A DNA stretch of 8,050 nucleotides from a virus (taxonomy: Duplodnaviria > Heunggongvirae > Uroviricota > Caudoviricetes). The position numbers and the translations under genes are program-made. The number at the start of each line of letters is the position of its first letter. The first letter of the stretch is position 1. This document shows, in pieces, positions 1-8,050 of the stretch. The notes below the pieces were generated by a model. The model did not search any database. It had not been told where the DNA came from and was given only the letters and a program-made list of their open reading frames with translations. The DNA lies in IMG/VR virus record IMGVR_UViG_2778261269_000007, positions 1 through 8,050 of that record; one strand, 5' to 3'.

Positions 1-201
1 TTACCCATTGGCGCGGCTTAAGAGTTTATTTTTGAACTCACAATGGTCACGATATAACCATCTTGCTCGCCCGTGGATAACTTTGGCTTTAGGCAGGTCT
101 CCGGACTTAATCCGGTCATAGATGAAGGTTTTACCGAAGCCAGTATCGGCCATGATGAATTTCAAATCAACCAGTGAATCAGGTTGTAGTTCGTGTTGCA
201 T
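1..201 (-). CDS. Putative excisionase / AlpA-family DNA-binding protein (66 aa)
   Basis: Complete minus-strand ORF (ATG 199-201, stop TAA 1-3) with GGAGA 8 nt upstream. The motif DTGFGKTFIYDRIKSGDLP...RWLYRDHCEFKNKL fits the AlpA/Xis winged-helix pattern. It sits at the distal end of the leftward early operon, where xis lies in lambdoid phages. It is not lambda Xis by sequence. Confidence 0.6.
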   Translation of the reverse strand: MQHELQPDSLVDLKFIMADTGFGKTFIYDRIKSGDLPKAKVIHGRARWLYRDHCEFKNKLLSRANG

Positions 202-240
202 GAGTGCTATCTCCGAATAGGGAATCGAACCTGCAAATCA

Positions 241-267
241 GGCAATAAAAAACCGCCATCAGGCGGC
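241..267 (-). terminator. Rho-independent terminator-like hairpin (minus strand)
   Basis: The minus strand reads GCCGCC-TGAT-GGCGG followed by TTTTTTATT. Stem arms lie at 253-257 and 262-266, with the U-tract encoded by the A-run at 244-251. Confidence 0.5.
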
Positions 268-426
268 TTGGTGTTCTTTCAGTTCTTCAATTCGAATATT
301 GGTTATGTCTGCATGTGCTATCTGCGCCCATATCATCCAGTGGTCATAGCAGTCGTTGATGTTCTCCGCTTCGATAACTCTGTTGAATGGTTCTCCATTC
401 CATTCACCTGTGACTCGGAAGTGCAT
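259..426 (-). CDS. Small hypothetical phage protein (55 aa, MHFRVTGEWNGEPFNRVIEAENINDCYDHWMIWAQIAHADITNIRIEELKEHQAA)
   Basis: Hand-translated minus-strand ORF below the ORF-track size cut-off. ATG at 424-426 is preceded by GGAGA; the stop TGA (259-261) lies in the loop of the terminator hairpin. It fills the gap between the Ea8.5-like gene and the excisionase gene. Confidence 0.4.
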   Translation of the reverse strand: MHFRVTGEWNGEPFNRVIEAENINDCYDHWMIWAQIAHADITNIRIEELKEHQAA

Positions 427-439
427 TTATCATCTCCAT

Positions 440-464
440 AAAACAAAACTCGCCGTAGCGAGTT
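440..464 (-). terminator. Rho-independent terminator-like hairpin (minus strand)
   Basis: The minus strand reads AACTCGC-TACG-GCGAGTT followed by TTTGTTTT. Arms lie at 447-453 and 458-464, directly downstream of the 515..796 gene. Confidence 0.45.
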
Positions 465-514
465 CAGATAAAAGAAATCCCCGCGAGTGCGAGGATAGTT
501 ACTTGTTCATATTA

Positions 515-796
515 TTAATCGTCAATGTATTTTGAGCATTGTGGGCAATCATCAATCCCACAATACGATTCATATGCATCCTTTATTGCGTCGCGGGCTT
601 CAGTAAGAGTATTGAATAAGTTGCAGCTATTATCTTTTTGATATAGGTAAGTTCCTAATTTATAAGCAGAAGAAGCATCATTTCCGCTGTCTAAAATTAC
701 ATCGTTATGGATTCTGCACCTTGCAAGAACTCCTGATCCCATAAGGGTCTGCATAGCCCATTGCTCTTGATCTTCACACAAATCATGAATGCTCAT
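515..796 (-). CDS. Ea8.5-like small protein with C-terminal CxxC (93 aa from the internal ATG)
   Basis: Minus-strand ORF 515..814 in the track. The ATG at 794-796 has a GAGAGGTG Shine-Dalgarno 5-7 nt upstream, so the start is probably MSIHDLCEDQEQWA. C-terminal ...YCGIDDCPQCSKYIDD, the length, and the position between the ea22-like gene and xis resemble the lambdoid Ea8.5 family; the family assignment is from memory. Confidence 0.5.
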   Translation of the reverse strand: MSIHDLCEDQEQWAMQTLMGSGVLARCRIHNDVILDSGNDASSAYKLGTYLYQKDNSCNLFNTLTEARDAIKDAYESYCGIDDCPQCSKYIDD

Positions 797-910
797 TTCA
801 ACACCTCTCTTCACGTTTCACACACGTTAAGATTAACAGTGTTTTTACATGTTTTGGAAGATTTATTTTATAAAAACTCTTTTAATACAAATAGATATAA
901 TAGTTCACTA

Positions 911-1384
911 TTATAGCTCCTTTAATCGAGGCGGTTCAGGTAGAGGCATCCAGTGGGTTACCTCTTTGAGATACAGGTCTTCGCCATCACCGTCATCCCA
1001 AGTGGGATTGCCATCATTAAACCAGTCGCCATATACGCCGACCTGAGTGTTGGGGATGTTTGGTGGGTAGTTGTTTTTAAAGTCAGCTGCTAACACATAG
1101 CATTGTCGCTCTCCCATTTCTGGCATTCGCTCACTACAGCTTATCCAACCATCCGGAGTTACCGGAGAGTTGCCCGACAGCTCGTTCAACTTGTAAGTCT
1201 GGCTTACAGGCTCGACTTCCAGTGATGCCAGCGCAATTCGTGCCAGTTCTAGTTCTCGTGCAACCATCTCAATAACAACTTTGCAGTCCGCACCTTCTTT
1301 GCTAACACGTCCTTTCAAGTCTTCCAGATAACTAACGCTTTCGCGTGCATGGGAGATTAACTGTTCTTTGGTAAATGTTGTCAT
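911..1384 (-). CDS. Phage protein with C-terminal DUF551-like domain (157 aa)
   Basis: Minus-strand ORF with GAGG upstream of ATG 1382-1384. The C-terminal GWISCSERMPE...VTHWMPLPEPP matches the characteristic DUF551 signature common in E. coli prophage accessory regions. Confidence 0.55.
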   Translation of the reverse strand: MTTFTKEQLISHARESVSYLEDLKGRVSKEGADCKVVIEMVARELELARIALASLEVEPVSQTYKLNELSGNSPVTPDGWISCSERMPEMGERQCYVLAADFKNNYPPNIPNTQVGVYGDWFNDGNPTWDDGDGEDLYLKEVTHWMPLPEPPRLKEL

Positions 1385-1578
1385 TGATAGCCTCTACTTA
1401 TATTTTGGGGTTCGATCACACATAAGGAATCCAGTCACGTATGAGTAAGCACAATCCCACTTATCCCCCTTGCTGATAGCAACTCCTTCACTTAATCCAC
1501 GGTTATAGCCAGCACTCTCACCGACTCAAATGCCGCCAAAACCAAAAACAAATGCGATAACAATGGTGTAAAGTTGTC

Positions 1579-2202
1579 TCATGCCTTCTCCTGCTGGCTA
1601 ATAACTTCGTGTTCTCTACTGCTTTCCAACACTGATACAGCCTGGAAAGCCTCTTTAAGCACCCAGTCAACAGCGTCTTTCCATGCTCCTGTTTCGACTG
1701 GCGGATTTTCACGCTTAACCTGTTCATAGAAGCTCACTGCTTTAACCAGTCCTTCCGGCACTACTGGCGATGGCTGTTTAGCTTCTAAATCAGCAATTCT
1801 GTCAACAACGGCATCAACGGCATCAGAAAAGCCGAACCAGTTACTCCACTCCGGCCTATCCCCGGTTGCTGCAAAGTACATATCAGCTAAAGCAGACTCA
1901 GCATGGTCACGCTCATTAATGAGTTGCTCTTCGCTTTTCTCCAGCTCTGCAATGCGTTTGCTTTGAGCTTCCAGTTCATCAAGAAGCGCAAGCACGGTAG
2001 CCGGATTAGCCTTGGCAACAAAATCCCGGACTGGCTTACAATCAATCTCCGCAATGGGTTGATACAATGTGTAGCCATGCTGTCTTGTATAACTACCGTG
2101 ACGAATAACGAAAAAATCACCATTTATTTTTTTAGCCTGCCACTTATCTTCACCTGCTTTCTCTGCCGCCTCACGCAGTACCTGATAGTCAATCTTGCTC
2201 AC
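1579..2202 (-). CDS. Ead/Ea22-like family protein (207 aa)
   Basis: Minus-strand ORF starting at GTG 2200-2202 with GGAGG 6 nt upstream. The N-terminus [17 protein letters not shown] is the typical start of ead/Ea22-like prophage proteins, followed by coiled-coil-like LEAQSKRIAELEKSEEQL. Confidence 0.6.
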   Translation of the reverse strand: MSKIDYQVLREAAEKAGEDKWQAKKINGDFFVIRHGSYTRQHGYTLYQPIAEIDCKPVRDFVAKANPATVLALLDELEAQSKRIAELEKSEEQLINERDHAESALADMYFAATGDRPEWSNWFGFSDAVDAVVDRIADLEAKQPSPVVPEGLVKAVSFYEQVKRENPPVETGAWKDAVDWVLKEAFQAVSVLESSREHEVISQQEKA

Positions 2203-2455
2203 TGGTTGCCTCCGTTTCCCACGTTTTCAGACTTTCACCACAGAACGGGCAAAATAAAACCCGAATCGGCGATTTAGAAAACTCGCCTGACCGAAGCATG
2301 ATCAGATCTTGTGAATGAATTAATTCATGGTTATAGATTTTGTATTTCAGCAGACCTTTTCGCGTCGTGTATTCAGCGTCATGCTCCAAGGATTGCGTCA
2401 ACGCCGAGCACGGTTCTATCTTATTGCCATTAATTTGGCATTTTGACTCACTCAC
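2189..2455 (-). CDS. Hypothetical Cys-containing small protein (88 aa; Cys at 6, 16, 69, 72 including CPFC)
   Basis: Minus-strand ORF with GTG start at 2453-2455 and AAGGAGG 6 nt upstream. Its 3' end overlaps the ea22-like start. Four cysteines suggest a possible metal-binding ribbon. No recognisable family. Confidence 0.45.
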
Positions 2456-2619
2456 TGGTTGCCTCCTTTACGCCACATCGCATTCAGATATTTGTTTTGA
2501 TTTACTGATGGAAAAGAATTTCTCTTAAGTAATTCCTCTCTCGATGGCATTGGCTTTACGCGTTGGCGAATAATCATTTCTGCCAGAAGAATGCCGGGAT
2601 TGTATGCAAGTCCTCTCAT
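2452..2619 (-). CDS. Small hypothetical protein (55 aa, [55 protein letters not shown])
   Basis: Hand-translated minus-strand ORF below the track cut-off. ATG at 2617-2619; stop TGA at 2452-2454 overlaps the GTG start of the downstream gene in a GTGA arrangement typical of translational coupling. The Shine-Dalgarno is weak. Confidence 0.3.
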
Positions 2620-2635
2620 GGTAAATTCCACTTTG

Positions 2636-2956
2636 TTAATTTATTCGTATTCCTGTTCTCTCTTCATCGAGTTTTTTTAGCTTGTATCGCATAGCCCTTA
2701 CTGAATAAATTGAGCGGCAGGTTGCAATTGCTATTTCTTCTGCGGAGAACTTACCGAAAAGTGATACTTCGGCTCTTGTCCATCGTCTTCCACGAAGTCG
2801 GCTAACAATGTCAGCGCCAATCCTTGTTGCTTTCGCCATAACTGCTTTTTCAGTCCTTTCCAGTTTTTCAGCGATAACTTCAACTGGCATTGTCGCCGCT
2901 ACTTCGCGCAAGAAATCGACTTCCCATTTCTCCCATGGAGTCTTTTTCATAGGCAA
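2636..2956 (-). CDS. Hypothetical protein with two tandem helix-turn-helix-like (Myb/SANT-like) repeats (106 aa)
   Basis: Minus-strand ORF. Internal repeat [12 protein letters not shown]...[19 protein letters not shown] and [36 protein letters not shown] indicates a duplicated small DNA-binding-like module. Domain assignment is by pattern only. Confidence 0.45.
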
Positions 2957-2961
2957 TACCG

Positions 2962-3444
2962 TTATTTGATAAGAAGTGAAGGTTTCCCAACTTTGAGTTG
3001 AGCGCCGGGGATATTTATTCCTGCTTTTAGTTGGTGTTTGATTGCCAGTTTGTCGGCTTTAATTGTCGTTTCAAACTCAACGTATTCAGGAGGAAGGGCG
3101 CTTGAGTCGATTATTTCTACAATTTCTGACGGTTTGCGGATTGTTACCTGGTGAATACCTGCTCGAATATTTTTCTTGCCAACCATTTCAAGCGATGACG
3201 CTATATATGATTTGATGCTGTCAATCTTATTTTGAATTACTGCGGCTCGCTCATTCAGTGACTTTGCCTCTTCCTTGAGGCGTTCGGCATAACCAGATTC
3301 ATTTTTAATGACGGAAAGAAGTTGTTCTATTTTATCGGTAAATTCTCCTTCCATGCCTTCTATTGTGTCAGCAATCATCTCTGGTTCTAAATCTGAATCC
3401 ATCAATTTTGCGTATTCATTGGCAATTTCATACAGTTTGCTCAC
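2962..3444 (-). CDS. Phage protein, coiled-coil rich, possibly Gp157-family, encoded immediately downstream of recT (about 160 aa)
   Basis: Track ORF 2962..3450. GGAGG lies at 3451-3455, immediately adjacent to the TTG, so the start is more likely GTG 3442-3444. It overlaps the recT 3' end by 17 nt. The N-terminal half is charged and helical (EYAKLMDSDLEPEMIADTIEGMEGEFTDKIEQLL...RLKEEAKSLNERAAVIQNKIDSIK). The family name is a low-confidence recollection. Confidence 0.5.
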   Translation of the reverse strand: MSKLYEIANEYAKLMDSDLEPEMIADTIEGMEGEFTDKIEQLLSVIKNESGYAERLKEEAKSLNERAAVIQNKIDSIKSYIASSLEMVGKKNIRAGIHQVTIRKPSEIVEIIDSSALPPEYVEFETTIKADKLAIKHQLKAGINIPGAQLKVGKPSLLIK

Positions 3445-4330
3445 TGGCAACCTCCAGTTTAGCTTTGCATTCTGCGTAAATGGCTTGTACGTTCTGCTGC
3501 AATTTCATTCCAGATGTCAGGCGATATGCTTCTGCAAAATATCGCTTCAAATCATCCATGTTTTCTGCCTGAGCCATTTCATCACAAAGAAGTTGTGCTT
3601 TATCCATTATTTCCTTCTGGCGTTTCCGTTCATCTTCGCGTATATCTTCCTCTGATTTGTGCGGCATAACTGGTTCCTGATGCATACCTTCATCCTCGTT
3701 AAGCAGGTGAATGGCATTATCCAGTCGCTGGGCTTTAGGCCAGTATTTGCTGGCGCGTTTAACTATTGTTTTACGCGCCATCTCTTCCCAGAATGTCTTC
3801 CACGGTCCATTCTTTGCCTTGCTCGTTGCTTCCACAGCTTTAATTTCTGCCAGACTCATTTCTTCAGTCAGGTAGTCACCATCTGCTGTTTTAACCGTGC
3901 AATAACCACCAACAATAGAGCCTCGCTCACCAAATGCGTTGTATTTGTGGGTTGGTGCTGAATCAAGGCCGTTTGATTCATAGGTGTCGTTTGAGTACAC
4001 CAGTTTGCATTGCCCCCACTTAATTGAGCCTGTCGATTGCGCAAGATGAAGTAATCCCATATAGCTGATATCAAGGCAAACCATGCCGTCGCGCGGAACC
4101 AGATAAGCCAGTTTGCTGGCCGGGTTTAAGGTGATGCCGATCGCCGCAACATTGATGATGGCGTTCTGTGCGCTGGTTGGATTTGCCAGTGCCGTTTTAG
4201 CAAGGTAATCGTTTTTCTGGAAATACTGAATTGCAAACTGGCTTTCCTTAGCCCATGTAACCGTCTGTTCAGTCAATGCTCCGCAGAATAACTGCTCCTG
4301 CTGTTTAACGAATTCAACGATATTGCTCAT
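3428..4330 (-). CDS. recT: RecT-family single-strand annealing recombinase (300 aa)
   Basis: Minus-strand ORF. The C-terminal region NGPWKTFWEEMARKTIVKRASKYWP parallels the E. coli RecT segment NNGPWVTHWEEMAKKTAIRRLFKYLP, and the overall architecture is RecT/Red-beta like. It occupies the position of bet in the lambda PL operon. Confidence 0.8.
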   Translation of the reverse strand: MSNIVEFVKQQEQLFCGALTEQTVTWAKESQFAIQYFQKNDYLAKTALANPTSAQNAIINVAAIGITLNPASKLAYLVPRDGMVCLDISYMGLLHLAQSTGSIKWGQCKLVYSNDTYESNGLDSAPTHKYNAFGERGSIVGGYCTVKTADGDYLTEEMSLAEIKAVEATSKAKNGPWKTFWEEMARKTIVKRASKYWPKAQRLDNAIHLLNEDEGMHQEPVMPHKSEEDIREDERKRQKEIMDKAQLLCDEMAQAENMDDLKRYFAEAYRLTSGMKLQQNVQAIYAECKAKLEVASEQTV

Positions 4331-4638
4331 GCAGCTTCTCCAAAAATGTGTCTGCGTTTGAATATTGCGAAGGCATATTCAGCCTTAACTCTTTCGGTTA
4401 TTGCATCCCAGAACCATTCAGCGGCTTTTTCCTGATAGTTACAGTCATCATCTTCCAGCCAGTCGATAGCGTCCTTAGTGTGTTCATCTGGTTTATATGA
4501 GCGAAGCATTTCGCTTATTGGGTCGCAACGTTTGCAGAGGCGATCAACTTCACTGTTGATTCGCTCGTAATCTTCATCAGTAAAACTTGCGATTATTTGC
4601 GATATTTCACGCTTATCATTCAGAGTCAGAATCATCAT
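4327..4638 (-). CDS. Hypothetical acidic protein translationally coupled to recT (103 aa); candidate host-nuclease modulator
   Basis: Minus-strand ORF whose stop overlaps the recT ATG (ATGA at 4327-4330). It occupies the gam/abc position immediately upstream of the recombinase. No family recognised from sequence. Confidence 0.55.
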   Translation of the reverse strand: MMILTLNDKREISQIIASFTDEDYERINSEVDRLCKRCDPISEMLRSYKPDEHTKDAIDWLEDDDCNYQEKAAEWFWDAITERVKAEYAFAIFKRRHIFGEAA

Positions 4639-4723
4639 CTTTCTCCTGTTCTTTGTGCTGATTGAGCATTTTGTTCATCTGACGAATGAATTCTTCGTCT
4701 GACCAGTTATCTGTAAAACTCAT
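4616..4723 (-). CDS. Small acidic hypothetical protein (35 aa, MSFTDNWSDEEFIRQMNKMLNQHKEQEKDDDSDSE) in the kil position
   Basis: Hand-translated ORF. ATG 4721-4723 overlaps the stop of the cIII-like gene (ATGA), and the 3' end overlaps the start of the 103-aa gene. Positionally equivalent to lambda kil but with no sequence resemblance that I can confirm. Confidence 0.3.
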   Translation of the reverse strand: MSFTDNWSDEEFIRQMNKMLNQHKEQEKDDDSDSE

Positions 4724-4890
4724 GGGCGGCCTTGTTGTTTCAAAATATCCCAAAGCTTTTCGAGCAAACTTTTCATTCTTGGTTGTTTAAAGTCTGCTCC
4801 GGTTAAAATATTTTTTCGTGAATGCTGTACCGATAAAATCGGGTTGAAAGGGCGAACCGATGCCGCCCCTGCAATAGCGAACTGTTGCAT
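4720..4890 (-). CDS. cIII: cIII-like protein (56 aa from the internal ATG)
   Basis: The track ORF 4720..4995 has an internal ATG at 4888-4890 with AAGGAG 7 nt upstream. From there the product MQQFAIAG...SLLEKLWDILKQQGRP resembles lambda CIII (MQYAIAG...LLERI...LIDILNQPG). The upstream part of the track ORF spans a terminator hairpin and is unlikely to be coding. Confidence 0.45.
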   Translation of the reverse strand: MQQFAIAGAASVRPFNPILSVQHSRKNILTGADFKQPRMKSLLEKLWDILKQQGRP

Positions 4891-4956
4891 AGGATGCTCC
4901 TTCTGTTTGATTGCATAACGAAAACGCCTCGAGTGAAGCGTTATTGGTATGCATAT

Positions 4957-4980
4957 AAAAAGGCCCTCACACTGGAGGGC
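4957..4980 (-). terminator. Rho-independent terminator-like hairpin between ral and the cIII-like gene (tL2-like position)
   Basis: The minus strand reads GCCCTC-CAGTGT-GAGGGC followed by CTTTTT. Arms at 4963-4968 and 4975-4980; the U-tract is encoded by the A-run at 4957-4961. Confidence 0.45.
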
Positions 4981-5116
4981 AAAGAAGATTTCCAATAATC
5001 AGAACAAGTCGGCTCCTGTTTGGTTACGAGCGACATTGCTCCGTGTATTCACTCGTTGGAATGAATACACAGTGCAGTGTTTATTCTGTTGTTTATGCCA
5101 AAAATAAAGGCCACTA

Positions 5117-5317
5117 TCAGGCAGCTTTGTTGTTCTGTTTACCAAGTTCTCTGGCAATCATTGCCGTCGTTCGTATTGCCCATTTATCGACATATTTCCC
5201 ATCTTCCATTACAGGAAACATTTCTTCAGGCTTAACCATGCATTCCGATTGCAGCTTGCATCCATTGCATCGCTTGAATTGTCCACACCATTGATTTTTA
5301 TCAATAGTCGTAGTCAT
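5117..5317 (-). CDS. ral: Ral, restriction alleviation protein (66 aa)
   Basis: The minus-strand ORF MTTTIDKNQWCGQFKRCNGCKLQSECMVKPEE... matches my recollection of lambda Ral in length and sequence, and it lies downstream of N as in lambda. Confidence 0.7.
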   Translation of the reverse strand: MTTTIDKNQWCGQFKRCNGCKLQSECMVKPEEMFPVMEDGKYVDKWAIRTTAMIARELGKQNNKAA

Positions 5318-5387
5318 ACGGATAGTCCTGGTATTGTTCCATCACATCCTGAGGATGCTCTTCGAACTCTTCAAATTCTTCTTCCAT
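5301..5387 (-). CDS. Small acidic ORF (28 aa, MEEEFEEFEEHPQDVMEQYQDYPYDYDY), lambda orf28-like
   Basis: Hand-translated ORF. ATG 5385-5387 is preceded by GAGGTGA; the stop at 5301-5303 overlaps the ral start by 17 nt. Length and position between N and ral match the lambda orf28 annotation as I recall it. Confidence 0.4.
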   Translation of the reverse strand: MEEEFEEFEEHPQDVMEQYQDYPYDYDY

Positions 5388-5395
5388 ATATCACC

Positions 5396-5722
5396 TCAAA
5401 TAAGTGGTTTGCTGCCTAATTTCATTTTCTGGCGACCAACACAAGTCACACCCATTTCACTGCATGGCTTGCTGTACCATGTGCGCTGATTCTTGCGTTC
5501 AATACGTTGCAGGTTGCTTTCAATCTGTTCGTGGTATTCAGCCAGCACCGTAAGGTCTATCGGATTAAGTGCGCTGTCTACTCGTGATTTCGGTTTGCGA
5601 TTCAGCGAGAGAATAGGGCGGTTAACTGGTTTTGCGCTTACCCCAACCAACAGGGGATTTGCTGCTTTCCATTGAGCCTGTTTCTCTGCGCGACGTTCGC
5701 GGCGGCGTGTTTGTGCATCCAT
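5396..5722 (-). CDS. N: Antitermination protein N (108 aa)
   Basis: The minus-strand ORF MDAQTRRRERRAEKQAQWKAANPLLVGVSAKPVNRPILSLNRKPKSR... is near-identical to lambda N as recalled, including the arginine-rich boxB-binding motif at the N-terminus. AGGAG lies upstream of the ATG. Confidence 0.9.
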   Translation of the reverse strand: MDAQTRRRERRAEKQAQWKAANPLLVGVSAKPVNRPILSLNRKPKSRVDSALNPIDLTVLAEYHEQIESNLQRIERKNQRTWYSKPCSEMGVTCVGRQKMKLGSKPLI

Positions 5723-5920
5723 CTGGATTCTCCTGTCAGTTAGCTTTGGTGATTGGATGGCCGGCGCTGAACCCCGGCTTACTGGTTAGAGCGCCCGCAC
5801 TACCAGTGACGCTGTCTTGAGGCGCAGATTGGTTACTGCTTGCCATGAGCGCTGTTTATACATTGGTCGAGCATCAGCCTGCTCATTCATCCAATCCCAA
5901 AGCCTTCTGCTTTGAATGCT

Positions 5921-5951
5921 GCCCTTCTTCAGGGCTTAATTTTTAAGAGCC
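5921..5951 (-). promoter_or_regulatory. nutL site (boxA variant plus boxB hairpin)
   Basis: The minus strand reads GGCTCTTAAAAATTAAGCCCTGAAGAAGGGC. boxB GCCCTGAAGAAGGGC (plus 5921-5935) is identical to lambda nutL boxB. boxA is GGCTCTTA (plus 5944-5951), against CGCTCTTA in lambda. Confidence 0.8.
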
Positions 5952-5983
5952 TCACCTTCATGGTGGTTAGTACGTCCTGCTGA

Positions 5984-6019
5984 TGGCTAAATAGTACGAT
6001 TTGTACTTTATTGAGTCAA
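5984..6019 (-). promoter_or_regulatory. PL early leftward promoter
   Basis: The minus strand reads TTGACT (-35, plus 6014-6019), a 17-nt spacer, TACTAT (-10, plus 5991-5996), then the start at the A of ATCAGCAGGACG (about 5984), which is the lambda PL transcript start sequence. Confidence 0.7.
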
Positions 6020-6032
6020 TACAAAATGTTCT
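5993..6032. promoter_or_regulatory. Putative OL operators (palindromic repressor sites overlapping PL)
   Basis: A perfect palindrome AGTAC-N5-GTACT at 5993-6007 overlaps the -10. A related site AATAC-N5-GTTCT at 6018-6032 overlaps the -35. The pattern differs from lambda OL (TATCACCGC...), consistent with a different immunity. Confidence 0.45.
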
Positions 6033-6083
6033 AAATATAATTAGTTTTTTATAACGCTTTGTATTTAATGGGTTTATATTTTG

Positions 6084-6114
6084 GAAAAAGAAAACCCGAC
6101 GCTAAGGTCGGGTT
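6084..6114 (-). terminator. Rho-independent terminator downstream of cI
   Basis: The minus strand reads AACCCGAC-CTTAGC-GTCGGGTT followed by TTCTTTTT. Arms at 6093-6100 and 6107-6114, about 30 nt after the cI stop. Confidence 0.5.
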
Positions 6115-6144
6115 ATTGTTGTGTGTTTTAGAGTTGTGAGGCTG

Positions 6145-6798
6145 TTAACTAAATGTCTCTTCAGGCCACTGGCTGGCGATAACTTTCCCTACTACGGAAC
6201 AGCTATCATTGCATGGAATCATTGGATATTGCGGGTTTAGTGGCTGTAGGAACACCTGACCGCTATCCCTGATCAGTTTCTTGAAGGTAAACTCGTCACC
6301 ACCAAGTCTGGCTATGCAGAAATCACCTGGCTCAACAGCCTGCTCAGGGTCAACGAGAATTAACATCCCGTCAGGAAAGCTTGGCTTGGATCCTGTTGGA
6401 GCGGTCATGGAATTACCTTCAACTTCAAGCCAGAACGCACAATCACTGGCTTTTTTGGTTGTGCTTACCCATCTCTCCGCATCACCTTTGGTAAAGGTTC
6501 TAAGCTCAGGCGAGAACATCCCGGCCTGAACATGAGAAAAAACAGGGTACTCATATTGTTTTTTAACGGGGGCAGATGAGTATTCGCCAACAGGTGAAAA
6601 TGTACCGTCGTGGTTGAATGAGACGTTATCAATACCAAGGTATTTAAACACCACACCAATCTCGTCAAGAGATGGATGACGAGATCCGCGCAACCAGTGA
6701 CCAATTCCACCCTGCGTCATACCAAGCTCTTCAGCTAACTTCTCTTGAGTTATGCCGAGCTCTTTCATTCTGGATCTAGCCAGTTCATACCATTTCAT
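6145..6798 (-). CDS. cI: CI-type prophage repressor (HTH N-terminal domain plus S24 LexA-like C-terminal domain)
   Basis: The C-terminal 130 or so residues ([29 protein letters not shown]...[28 protein letters not shown]...[28 protein letters not shown]...) are near-identical to lambda cI as recalled, including the GNSM serine and the catalytic lysine region. The N-terminal HTH ([23 protein letters not shown]) is unlike lambda. The track ORF extends to a TTG at 6846, but an operator-like palindrome at 6814-6828 and an AAGGG Shine-Dalgarno favour ATG 6796-6798 (or 6802-6804). Confidence 0.85.
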
Positions 6799-6813
6799 TT
6801 TCATACCCTTATT

Positions 6814-6896
6814 ATTACGCTCTGTACTAAAACCATCCATGCACAAGATGTATTTTTTGTTTGCATTCTAAAAGTACATATCGTATTATTGTTTCA
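6814..6896. promoter_or_regulatory. OR operator region with PR (plus strand) and the presumed PRM (minus strand)
   Basis: PR: TTGCAT (6861-6866), 17-nt spacer, TATTAT (6884-6889), start near 6896, followed by GGAGGG and the cro ATG. Operator-like palindromes AGTAC-N5-GTATT (6872-6886, over the PR spacer and -10) and ATTAC-N5-GTACT (6814-6828) belong to the same family as the OL sites. The PRM hexamers could not be placed with confidence. Confidence 0.55.
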
Positions 6897-6915
6897 TGGT
6901 TACTATGGAGGGCAT

Positions 6916-7131
6916 ATGAGCAACCTACGAAAATATCGAGAGTCACTGAATATCTCTCAAACAACACTTGCTAAGGCAGTTGGATGCACACAGGGAGCTA
7001 TCGGACATTGGGAATCTGGTCGTCGCTTCCCAGACCTTAAAACATGCCGTGCTCTTGTTGAGTGCCTAAACAAGTTAGGCGCAAAAGTCAGTCTTGATGA
7101 CGTGTTCCCGCCGGAACACAAAGCCGCTTAA
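6916..7131 (+). CDS. cro: Cro-like repressor (71 aa, XRE-family HTH)
   Basis: First plus-strand gene after PR, with GGAGGG 4 nt before the ATG. The HTH QTTLAKAVGCTQGAIGHWESG resembles the HTH of the adjacent cI N-terminus. Not lambda Cro by sequence. The track ORF 6745..7131 is 5'-extended through the operator region. Confidence 0.8.
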   Translation: MSNLRKYRESLNISQTTLAKAVGCTQGAIGHWESGRRFPDLKTCRALVECLNKLGAKVSLDDVFPPEHKAA

Positions 7132-7139
7132 GACATTCC

Positions 7140-7171
7140 CGCTCTTACACATCCCAGCCCTGAAAAAGGGC
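7140..7171 (+). promoter_or_regulatory. nutR site (boxA CGCTCTTA plus boxB GCCCTGAAAAAGGGC)
   Basis: The sequence CGCTCTTACACATCCCAGCCCTGAAAAAGGGC matches lambda nutR as recalled. The following segment up to the cII start also matches the lambda tR1 / cII leader. Confidence 0.8.
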
Positions 7172-7227
7172 ATCAAATTAAACCACACCTATGGTGTATG
7201 CATTTATTTGCATACATTCAATCAATT

Positions 7228-7273
7228 GTTATCTAAGGAAATACTTACATATGGTTCGTGCAAACAAACGCAA
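7228..7273 (-). promoter_or_regulatory. PRE (cII-activated repressor-establishment promoter) with TTGC-N6-TTGC cII-binding repeats
   Basis: The minus strand across the cII start reads TTGCGTTTGTTTGCACGAACCATATGTAAGTATTTCC, the lambda PRE arrangement as recalled. The direct repeats TTGC...TTGC lie at plus 7260-7273. Confidence 0.6.
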
Positions 7274-7544
7274 CGAGGCTCTACGAATCGAGAGTGCGTT
7301 GCTTAACAAAATCGCAATGCTTGGAACTGAGAAGACAGCGGAAGCTGTGGGCGTTGATAAGTCGCAGATCAGCAGGTGGAAGAGGGACTGGATTCCAAAG
7401 TTCTCAATGCTGCTTGCTGTTCTTGAATGGGGTGTCGTTGACGACGACATGGCTCGATTGGCACGACAAGTTGCTTCGATTCTCACCAATAAAAAACGCC
7501 CGGCGGCAACCGAGCGTTCTGAACAAATCCAGATGGAATTCTGA
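7251..7544 (+). CDS. cII: Transcriptional activator CII (97 aa)
   Basis: From ATG 7251 the product MVRANKRNEALRIESALLNKIAMLGTEKTAEAVGVDKSQISRWKRDW... is essentially identical to lambda CII as recalled. The track ORF 7191..7544 is 5'-extended. Confidence 0.9.
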   Translation: MVRANKRNEALRIESALLNKIAMLGTEKTAEAVGVDKSQISRWKRDWIPKFSMLLAVLEWGVVDDDMARLARQVASILTNKKRPAATERSEQIQMEF

Positions 7545-7566
7545 GGTCATTACTGGATCTATCAAC
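7490..7566 (-). ncRNA. oop: oop antisense RNA (overlaps the cII 3' end)
   Basis: The minus strand from about 7566 reads GTTGATAGATCCAGTAATGACCTCAGAA...GTTGCCGCCGGGCGTTTTTTATT, matching lambda OOP RNA with its terminator as recalled. The ends are approximate. Confidence 0.55.
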
Positions 7567-7576
7567 AGGAGTCATT

Positions 7577-8050
7577 ATGACAAATACAGCAAAAATACTC
7601 AACTTCGGCAGAGGTAACTTTGCCGGACAGGAGCGTAATGTGGCAGATCTCGATGATGGTTACGCCAGACTATCAAATATGCTGCTTGAGGCTTATTCAG
7701 GCGCAGATCTGACCAAGCGACAGTTTAAAGTGCTGCTTGCCATTCTGCGTAAAACCTATGGGTGGAATAAACCAATGGACAGAATCACCGATTCTCAACT
7801 TAGCGAGATTACAAAGTTACCTGTCAAACGGTGCAATGAAGCCAAGTTAGAACTCGTCAGAATGAATATTATCAAGCAGCAAGGCGGCATGTTTGGACCA
7901 AACAAAAACATCTCAGAATGGTGCATCCCTCAAAACGAGGGAAAACCCCCTAAAACGAGGGATAAAACATCCCTCAAATTGGGGGATTGCTATCCCTCAA
8001 AACAGGGTAAGCGTCAACGGAGCACCGTATTGACGCTTATTTATTGGTGA
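7577..8050 (+). CDS. O: Replication initiator O, N-terminal iteron-binding part; frame terminates prematurely at 157 codons
   Basis: The product MTNTAKILNFGRGNFAGQERNVADLDDGYARLSNMLLEAYSGADLTKRQFKVLLAILRKTYGW... matches lambda O through about residue 145, then diverges (lambda ...SKQGDTKDT versus here ...SKQGKRQRSTVLTLIYW stop). Full-length lambda O is about 299 aa. CAGGAG lies upstream of the ATG. Confidence 0.85.
   Translation: MTNTAKILNFGRGNFAGQERNVADLDDGYARLSNMLLEAYSGADLTKRQFKVLLAILRKTYGWNKPMDRITDSQLSEITKLPVKRCNEAKLELVRMNIIKQQGGMFGPNKNISEWCIPQNEGKPPKTRDKTSLKLGDCYPSKQGKRQRSTVLTLIYW
7926..8007 (+). repeat. ori-lambda iterons (four O-binding repeats; the fourth is truncated)
   Basis: Four direct repeats of the TCCCTCAAA(A/T)...GGGA type at about 7926-7942, 7946-7962, 7970-7986 and 7993-8007, inside the O coding sequence as in lambda. 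The right arm of the fourth repeat is replaced by unrelated sequence. Confidence 0.8.

Follow-up and report, generated by a model that had tools for sequence, protein, structure and literature searches.

An 8,050-nucleotide (nt) stretch of Caudoviricetes DNA (IMG/VR record IMGVR_UViG_2778261269_000007, positions 1 to 8,050), referred to here as the window, comprises the leftward early region and the immunity region of a lambdoid prophage mosaic. On its minus strand two identical copies of the 16-mer GGAGGCAACCAGTGAG are found 253 bp apart, at 2213..2198 and 2466..2451, as a sequence-only reading of the window had reported, and they bracket an 88-amino acid (aa) gene of the phrog_4030 family that is located between a DUF2737 gene and an Ead/Ea22-like gene. 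It is probable (we put it at about 0.7) that this element, hereafter the linker, is a portable region for translation initiation and coupling which doubles as a homology linker of the Botstein/Clark type for the exchange of gene cassettes. In other phages the linker is flanked by genes in many combinations, homology breaks off at the motif, and the slot that the 88-aa gene occupies is found empty or with an alternative occupant. From the sequences we infer, in addition, that the motif would drive coupled translation and that crossovers within it, rather than selection on random joints, would have made this pattern.

The linker at gene junctions of lambdoid phages

Linker copy 1 (AAAGGAGGCAACCAGTGAGT, 2450..2469, minus strand) lies at the junction of the DUF2737 gene (2452..2619, minus strand) with the 88-aa gene (2189..2455, minus strand), the product of which has a CxxC ...CPFCG motif. 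It is supported by the repeat, the endpoints of BLAST high-scoring segment pairs (HSPs) and DUF2737 loci, and consists of a Shine-Dalgarno (SD) sequence GGAGG at 2462-2466, the spacer CAACCA at 2456-2461 and a GTG start codon at 2453-2455, with the stop codon TGA of the DUF2737 gene at 2452-2454, so that the last five codons of that gene (KGGNQ*) are linker-encoded. Linker copy 2 (AACGGAGGCAACCAGTGAGC, 2197..2216, minus strand), supported by the repeat and HSP ends, lies at the junction of the 88-aa gene with the Ead/Ea22-like gene (1579..2202, minus strand; profile matches), the commonest downstream partner of the linker; its SD is at 2209-2213, its spacer at 2203-2208 and its GTG at 2200-2202. 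The 88-aa gene reads through this copy as ...EATSEQD and stops at 2189-2191. Together with the first ~15 codons of the Ead/Ea22-like gene, linker copy 2 forms a conserved island of 62 bp (2155..2216, minus strand), the longest shared homology patch.

Exact matching of GGAGGCAACCAGTGAG against IMG/VR identified at least 120 phage contigs; counts of linker occurrences, pairs and upstream open reading frames (ORFs) given below hold among the matches listed. The linker sits at gene boundaries: in 118 of 121 occurrences an upstream stop codon lies 12-22 nt from the motif start, and the downstream ORF begins at the GTG of the motif. The annotation of phage HK620 agrees with this, as the linker is present there with one mismatch at the hkaH/hkaG junction and the annotated start of hkaG is the motif GTG. 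In 117 unique occurrences, conservation measured as information content is limited to the span between about -20 and +60 from the motif start (~80 bp) and is approximately zero on either side of it. The 62-bp island matched 408 records of GenBank phages (Escherichia, Stx-converting, Salmonella and Shigella phages), with only a single match continuing upstream of the motif. It was also found in 789 of 5,426 complete E. coli genomes (~15%), in up to six copies per genome, where the RefSeq gene pairs beneath the matches are ead/Ea22-like with DUF2737 and other combinations.

Comparison of the slot between the DUF2737 and Ea22-like genes, in sequences that agree in their upstream DUF2737 allele and have Ea22-like genes on the downstream side, revealed three states. 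In one contig (L196) the slot is empty and a single linker joins DUF2737 to Ea22; in the window phrog_4030 stands between two linkers; and in four contigs (L095, L140, L210 and L224) an unrelated 84-aa gene (MSNSARLQ...) takes that place, again with a linker on either side. On this comparison the 88-aa gene of the window is an insertion or replacement polymorphism of a single-gene cassette. When the 3' ends of DUF2737 genes were inspected, the linker was present with zero to two mismatches and a GTGA overlap in all 79 loci, and the next gene was of at least seven kinds (Ea22-like, phrog_4030, MSV(Y/C)LIDK, M(S/T/N)NRFYMM, MSNSARLQ, MSGKRMTN and MTGHAAIL), every one of them joined through the linker. 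In loci retrieved by means of the 88-aa protein alone, most 5' and 3' ends carry the motif or a one-mismatch variant of it and several different partners occur on each side; where an end has no motif, homology breaks at the same place.

A related observation concerns the DUF2737 gene of HK620, hkaI (L309, 3986-4030), which ends in a different junction, ...ATGTGGCGGAGTGGGAAGAAATGA, leading into hkaH. Its homology to the window ends directly behind ATGTGGCG, a few bases short of the expected start of the linker, and judging from this position it is an example of exchange beside the linker rather than through it.

When the flanks beyond the conserved island were clustered, the 121 occurrences gave 39 clusters on the upstream side and 42 on the downstream side. 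These are combined in 79 different ways, 15 four-gamete quartets being among them. For 182 pairs with only the upstream flank in common, identity stops 0-5 nt past the 16-mer in 76 and 15-40 nt past it in 91; for 163 pairs with only the downstream flank in common, it stops 0-20 nt before the motif in 128. In the window, 126 HSPs overlap linker copy 2, nearly all of which span only 2155-2216 and end at 2213-2216, and HSP ends also accumulate at the two edges of DUF2737 (43 at 2450-2474 and 30 at 2625-2649). The sequence-only reading had suggested looking for the 16-mer at gene junctions of related phages and for mosaic breakpoints that coincide with it, and both were found.

The upstream ORFs cross the motif in two frames. 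There are 83 that stop at the GTGA overlap with the tail ...KGGNQ*, and 35 that continue as ...EATSE(Q/R)x* or EATSE* to a stop 4-10 nt further on. Representatives of these upstream proteins belong to at least seven unrelated Pfam families (Ead_Ea22, DUF1627, DUF4752, DUF4406, DUF2737, DUF7446 and Lar), and one further representative gave only weak helix-turn-helix matches. Given the two reading frames and the unrelated families, the last residues of these proteins are encoded by a transplanted block of nucleotides, and on this evidence it is the DNA, and not a peptide, that is conserved at the linker. Unrelated small phage proteins with the common tails ...LRKGGNQ or ...EATSEQD/N/H (for example in L010, L018, L021 and L069) have linker-encoded ends that are not inherited with the protein, and many of the ...LRKGGNQ proteins also have an internal TPATDAFLAEVRAQG block in common. 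That the linker accounts for the odd KGGNQ and EATSEQD tails of unrelated small phage proteins is relevant to their annotation.

Arrays of this type are also present outside the lambdoid phages. Salmonella phage SJ46 (L390, NC_031129), a P1-like phage-plasmid (Punavirus), has an ea-type array at 1000-4100 in the order 193-aa gene, phrog_4030 homolog, 214-aa MNNRFYMM gene, Ea22-like gene and DUF551 protein, its phrog_4030 homolog being flanked by the ATG linker variants GGGGGCAACCAATGAG and GGAGGCAACCAATGAA. Ea-type arrays were likewise seen in 90-103 kb contigs among L229-L262, and 149 of the E. coli island matches are located on plasmids. The SJ46 array and these plasmid matches indicate that the cassette array crosses phage groups.

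Translation signals and the recT/gp157 junction

The sequence-only reading had described three near-identical start contexts on the minus strand, and all three were located: GGAGGCAACCAGTGAGC at 2213..2197, GGAGGCAACCAGTGAGT at 2466..2450 and GGAGGTTGCCAGTGAGC at 3455..3439, the last of which holds GGAGGTTGCCAGTGAG (3455..3440) as its counterpart of the 16-mer. The pattern GGAGGNNNCCAGTGAG occurs at exactly these three sites in the window, with a mean of 0.03 sites expected from dinucleotide-preserving shuffles, none of 200 of which reached three. A repeat search returned the three sites as its first direct-repeat family (D1, 19 nt, 100/95/74% identity), and GGAGG-N6-GTGAG is present at three of the 15 leftward gene starts of the window and absent from the other 12. 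The GTG starts at 2202 (Ead/Ea22-like, MSKIDY), 2455 (88 aa, MSESKC) and 3444 (Sipho_Gp157, MSKLYE) overlap the upstream ORF by 14 nt, 4 nt (GTGA) and 17 nt, respectively, which bears out the earlier description of GTG starts overlapping upstream gene ends with products beginning MSK, MSE and MSK. These starts are supported by profile matches beginning at residues 1-3 and by the RefSeq annotation of HK620 hkaG from the GTG of the same motif.

Pairing of the SD with the anti-SD at the three sites was calculated at -9.5 to -11.6 kcal/mol, which ranks them with the strongest of the 13 operon starts tested, with phrog_676 (-9.9) as the only other start within this range; the three sites also make up three of the four GTG starts among those tested. 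The anatomy of coupling is present at all three, with the stop/start overlaps given above, the SD inside the upstream ORF and GGAGG 6 nt before GTG. The suggestion of a shared translational-coupling element fits this strong SD, 6-nt spacing, GTG and stop/start overlap, and the sites would probably act as strong, accessible initiation regions with termination-reinitiation coupling.

Other signals were also considered. Folding detected no stable RNA structure at the three junctions (z-scores 1.67, -0.01 and 0.25), on which basis an RNA structure or riboregulator is ruled out, the third site alone having a weak 5-bp hairpin. No promoter-like or terminator-like site was found at the two CAACCA copies, and the third site has the sole terminator-like pattern, which runs on the opposite strand; a cassette of the promoter-early stem-loop (PeSL) type is excluded, as the linkers carry no such signal. 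A repeat search and folding found no inverted repeat at or around the linker. A Chi-like hotspot was likewise rejected, the reverse complement CTCACTGGTTGCCTCC being devoid of GCTGGTGG when inspected by eye.

The third site, a look-alike initiation region (ACTGGAGGTTGCCAGTGAGC, 3439..3458, minus strand) at the recT/Sipho_Gp157 junction, has its SD at 3451-3455 and its GTG at 3442-3444, with the recT stop at 3428-3430. Of 120 exact matches to GGAGGTTGCCAGTGAG, ~105 share their recT 3' end and gp157 start, and neither the junction nor the neighbors vary among the 80 gp157 loci, in a scan that returned relatives at 96-99% identity only, with more distant contexts beyond its reach. With unchanged flanks in both sets, a role as mosaic linker is ruled out for this site, which, judged by its neighbors, is a fixed, vertically inherited junction inside the recombination module. 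The proposal that such sites are module-boundary linkers is therefore upheld for the two CAACCA copies, with their gene junctions, unrelated flanks, breakpoint pile-up and slot polymorphism, and fails for the third copy with its fixed flanks; the description of one cassette used three times holds for the two identical copies and is overstated by the inclusion of the recT/gp157 copy, which is not a mosaic boundary. The third site has GGAGG...CCAGTGAGCAA in common with the linker, and the spacer variants CAGCCA and CTGCCA exist, so that the two may be of common descent.

A further feature of the third site is a 5-bp hairpin (ACUGG/CCAGU) in the minus-strand sequence ACUGGAGGUUGCCAGU (3443-3458), the stem of which takes in part of the SD together with the first GTG base; the CAACCA linker cannot form it. 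This hairpin could make translation of gp157 dependent on ribosomes finishing recT.

Proposed exchange through the linker and other explanations

We propose that, in the leftward early 'ea' (exo-xis) region of lambdoid phages, many small genes use AAAGGAGGCAACCAGTGAG as a portable translation-initiation and coupling region, which is made up of a strong SD, (A)AGGAGG, a 6-nt spacer, a GTG start and an upstream stop on or just past the start. Each small gene would bring the same leader, overlapping whatever lies upstream and supplying it with a stop codon. With the same bases before many unrelated genes, the leader would also give DNAs that are otherwise unrelated a short homology patch, of ~19-23 nt, or of ~60-80 nt at roughly 90% identity where an Ea22-like gene lies downstream. 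Exchange in or beside this patch could insert, delete or replace single-gene cassettes and leave translation of the operon unbroken. The most likely agents would be phage Rad52-like annealases such as RecT, which is encoded 1 kb upstream in the same operon. Homology that is short or diverged can be used by Rad52-like phage recombinases; the minimal pairing segment is 23-27 bp in the case of Red-beta, compared to 31-34 bp for RecA, and the RecT proteins of Rac and phi80 are similar (PMC3945230). Recombination between the two copies in the window would result in loss of the 88-aa gene and the arrangement of L196. Conversely, a cassette would be inserted or replaced if the event ran in the opposite direction or if exchange with another phage were unequal.

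A number of points weigh against this proposal. The exact repeat, whether the 16-mer or the ~19-23 nt available with a partner that is not Ea22-like, is at or below the Red-beta minimum of 23-27 bp, so that exchange there would be inefficient. Approximately 30-40% of phrog_4030 junctions, as well as the hkaI/hkaH junction of HK620, have no linker, and since the same genes are joined without it, other routes of exchange must exist. The spacer variants CAAGCA and CAGCCA tend to travel with particular downstream genes, a co-variation which suggests that the element is primarily each gene's own leader. Most occurrences were gathered by searching for the motif itself, making the sample conditional on its presence, and the scan for DUF2737 loci is somewhat biased, as its peptide pattern took in some of the tail that the linker encodes. 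Finally, crossover in the linker is here deduced from the positions of breakpoints.

The alternative that survives best, although we regard it as unlikely, is that of a pure translation signal, in which an optimal SD-spacer-GTG arrangement is kept or repeatedly reached by selection and mosaicism arises by illegitimate recombination with survival of functional joints. The strong SD pairing, optimal spacing, unstructured region and stop/start overlap would all be expected of such a signal; the recT/gp157 site has the same architecture without mosaicism, and the co-variation of spacer variants with the downstream gene also points in this direction. However, the CAACCA spacer and the flanking AAA are dispensable for an SD and yet are identical before at least seven unrelated genes, convergence on 16-19 identical bases being implausible, and upstream genes that are unrelated to one another have come to end in the same linker-encoded tails, in either of two frames. 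Breakpoints lying a few nucleotides from the motif on both sides also argue against a pure translation signal.

It is very unlikely that the motif is simply the 5' edge of a conserved Ead/Ea22 family start, found at junctions given that Ea22-like genes are common and often in tandem. About three-quarters of the sampled downstream genes do begin MS(K/E)I(D/N)YQ (among the matches listed), many of the upstream genes with ...LRKGGNQ tails are themselves Ea22-like or encode related coiled-coil proteins, and the island reaches ~45 nt into the Ea22 coding sequence. Against this, the linker also precedes phrog_4030, MSNSARLQ, MSV(Y/C)LIDK, M(S/T/N)NRFYMM, MSGKRMTN, MSVTVEKI and other genes, and copy 1 of the window itself precedes a gene that is not Ea22-like. 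The ea22 gene of lambda keeps the coding start GTGAGCGAAATTAAC... but with a different SD and spacer, so the linker is separable from the Ea22 family. An occurrence of the linker before non-Ea22 genes far above that of any other Ea22-adjacent sequence would contradict an Ea22 edge, and this has largely been seen already. The view of the motif as a mere part of Ea22 is rejected in light of the non-Ea22 genes which follow the linker and of the linker-free ea22 of lambda.

Single genes between direct copies, alternative cassettes in one slot and the same type of array in a P1-like phage-plasmid might also bring to mind a dedicated site for site-specific or targeted recombination, with integron-like capture and excision of cassettes. 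This is highly improbable, as the linker is without inverted-repeat or attC-like structure, no dedicated recombinase is consistently adjacent to it, and breakpoints extend over ~40 nt rather than falling at one phosphodiester bond. Chance likeness of the three sites, for which it can only be said that GGAGG and GTG are common signals, has a negligible probability given the shuffling result and the hundreds of identical copies in other phages, and for the two identical copies it is already refuted.

Returning to the linker as a homology patch for cassette exchange, a more far-reaching form of it can be envisaged, which is quite unlikely in our opinion. The linker together with its ORF may belong to a mobile pool that is excised as small circles and re-inserted by a phage annealase (RecT, Erf, Sak4 or Bet) during lytic growth, circulating between lambdoid phages and P1-like phage-plasmids (SJ46) as an integron-like system built on a ribosome-binding site.

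Neighboring genes and comparison with known systems

Gene identities in the window were taken from profile matches (Pfam, PHROG), giving the order of transcription RecT, Sipho_Gp157/Mu Gam-like, D5-like regulator fragment, DUF2737, 88-aa phrog_4030, Ead/Ea22-like and DUF551. Upstream of the genes already described, all on the minus strand, are the gene of the RecT-family single-strand annealing protein (3428..4330), the Sipho_Gp157/Mu Gam-like gene downstream of the third site (2962..3444) and the D5-like transcriptional regulator fragment (2636..2950). The 104-aa ORF of this fragment covers only positions 145-268 of the 319-position PHROG profile and could be either a remnant left by truncation or a domain that stands alone; in 80 of 80 loci it is inherited together with recT-gp157. 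At the far end of the array is the DUF551 gene (911..1384, minus strand; profile match), the start context of which, AGAGGCTATCAATGAC (1385-1400, minus strand), has 11 of 16 positions in common with the linker (SD-like GAGG, ...TCA, ATGA) and may be a degenerate relative or a coincidence. In the immunity region, the C-terminal half of a cI-like repressor ORF (6145-6846, minus strand) appears, from the ORF list, to resemble lambda cI and is joined to a different N-terminal DNA-binding half; the ORF would then be an intragenic mosaic. The Ead/Ea22-like protein (1579-2202) is matched in different segments by 19 different PHROG families and is a patchwork in which a conserved N-terminus of ~15 residues is combined with a coiled coil and a C-terminus that varies. 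This intragenic mosaic is consistent with the mosaic Ea22 variants that have been described (PMC10834534).

Among systems already described, stop-start overlaps of the ATGA/GTGA type have been reported for the nin/early operons of lambdoid phages (Kroger & Hobom 1982 and Cheng et al. 1995, as cited in PMC8022706). As cited there, they resemble the junctions of the window in their tight packing, with an upstream stop overlapping a downstream start and implying translational coupling, but the motif is one of 4 nt, compared to a 16-19-nt identical block of SD, spacer and start among unrelated genes here. Integron attC cassettes are similar in that single promoterless genes form an array with a recurring boundary sequence and alternative occupants at each position. 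The linker differs from these in lacking an attC-type imperfect inverted repeat, an integrase and a single crossover point, and in that expression is by operon read-through with each gene's own SD; the ORF list and profile matches showed no cassette-associated recombinase among the ORFs of the window.

An experimentally supported analogue is provided by the PeSL cassettes of T4-type phages, which lie between genes, measure ~100 bp and comprise a sigma-70 promoter, a terminator stem-loop and an SD, and for which mini-circles have been shown (Arbiol et al. 2010; PMC2839356). In both cases an expression signal is repeated on either side of non-essential ORFans in a hyperplastic region, the repeat marks the limits of ORF presence/absence polymorphisms, and excision and insertion by homologous recombination between repeats are proposed. 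The element described here has no promoter or stem-loop, is translational rather than transcriptional and overlaps the upstream ORF. Lacking the PeSL promoter and stem-loop, it is not a member of that family.

The closest comparison is with the linkers of the modular theory of phage evolution, a concept attributed to Susskind & Botstein (1978) and Botstein (1980) in the summaries of PMC2839356 and PMC2327257, which also cite Clark et al. (2001), on HK620, for short conserved sequences flanking modules in lambdoid phages. A search of published full text for the motif string returned only unrelated primer matches; the paper of Clark et al. was outside that search. As described in the citing papers, such linkers are short conserved sequences at gene boundaries between non-homologous modules, and the same sequence flanks alternative modules in one slot and keeps the incoming module correctly expressed. 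Likewise, the two CAACCA copies are conserved amid non-homologous flanks, are located at boundaries and are reassorted, whereas the flanks of the third site do not differ, and HK620 itself carries the linker, with one mismatch, at hkaH/hkaG. Going by the same descriptions, the present element differs in its length (~19 nt, or ~60-80 nt with an Ea22-like partner), in lying partly inside the upstream coding sequence and in acting on single small genes and not on functional modules. It is a concrete example of the long-proposed linker idea and, as an element of a known kind under a concept that is not new, would not surprise a specialist in lambdoid genomics. Its value lies in a long-standing argument over the origin of phage mosaicism, for which homologous exchange at conserved linkers and random illegitimate joining with subsequent selection are the opposing views. 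To this it contributes a very abundant test case: a 16-19-nt block in hundreds of phages, between at least seven upstream and at least seven downstream gene families, with clear empty, filled and alternative states of a slot and a RecT gene nearby.

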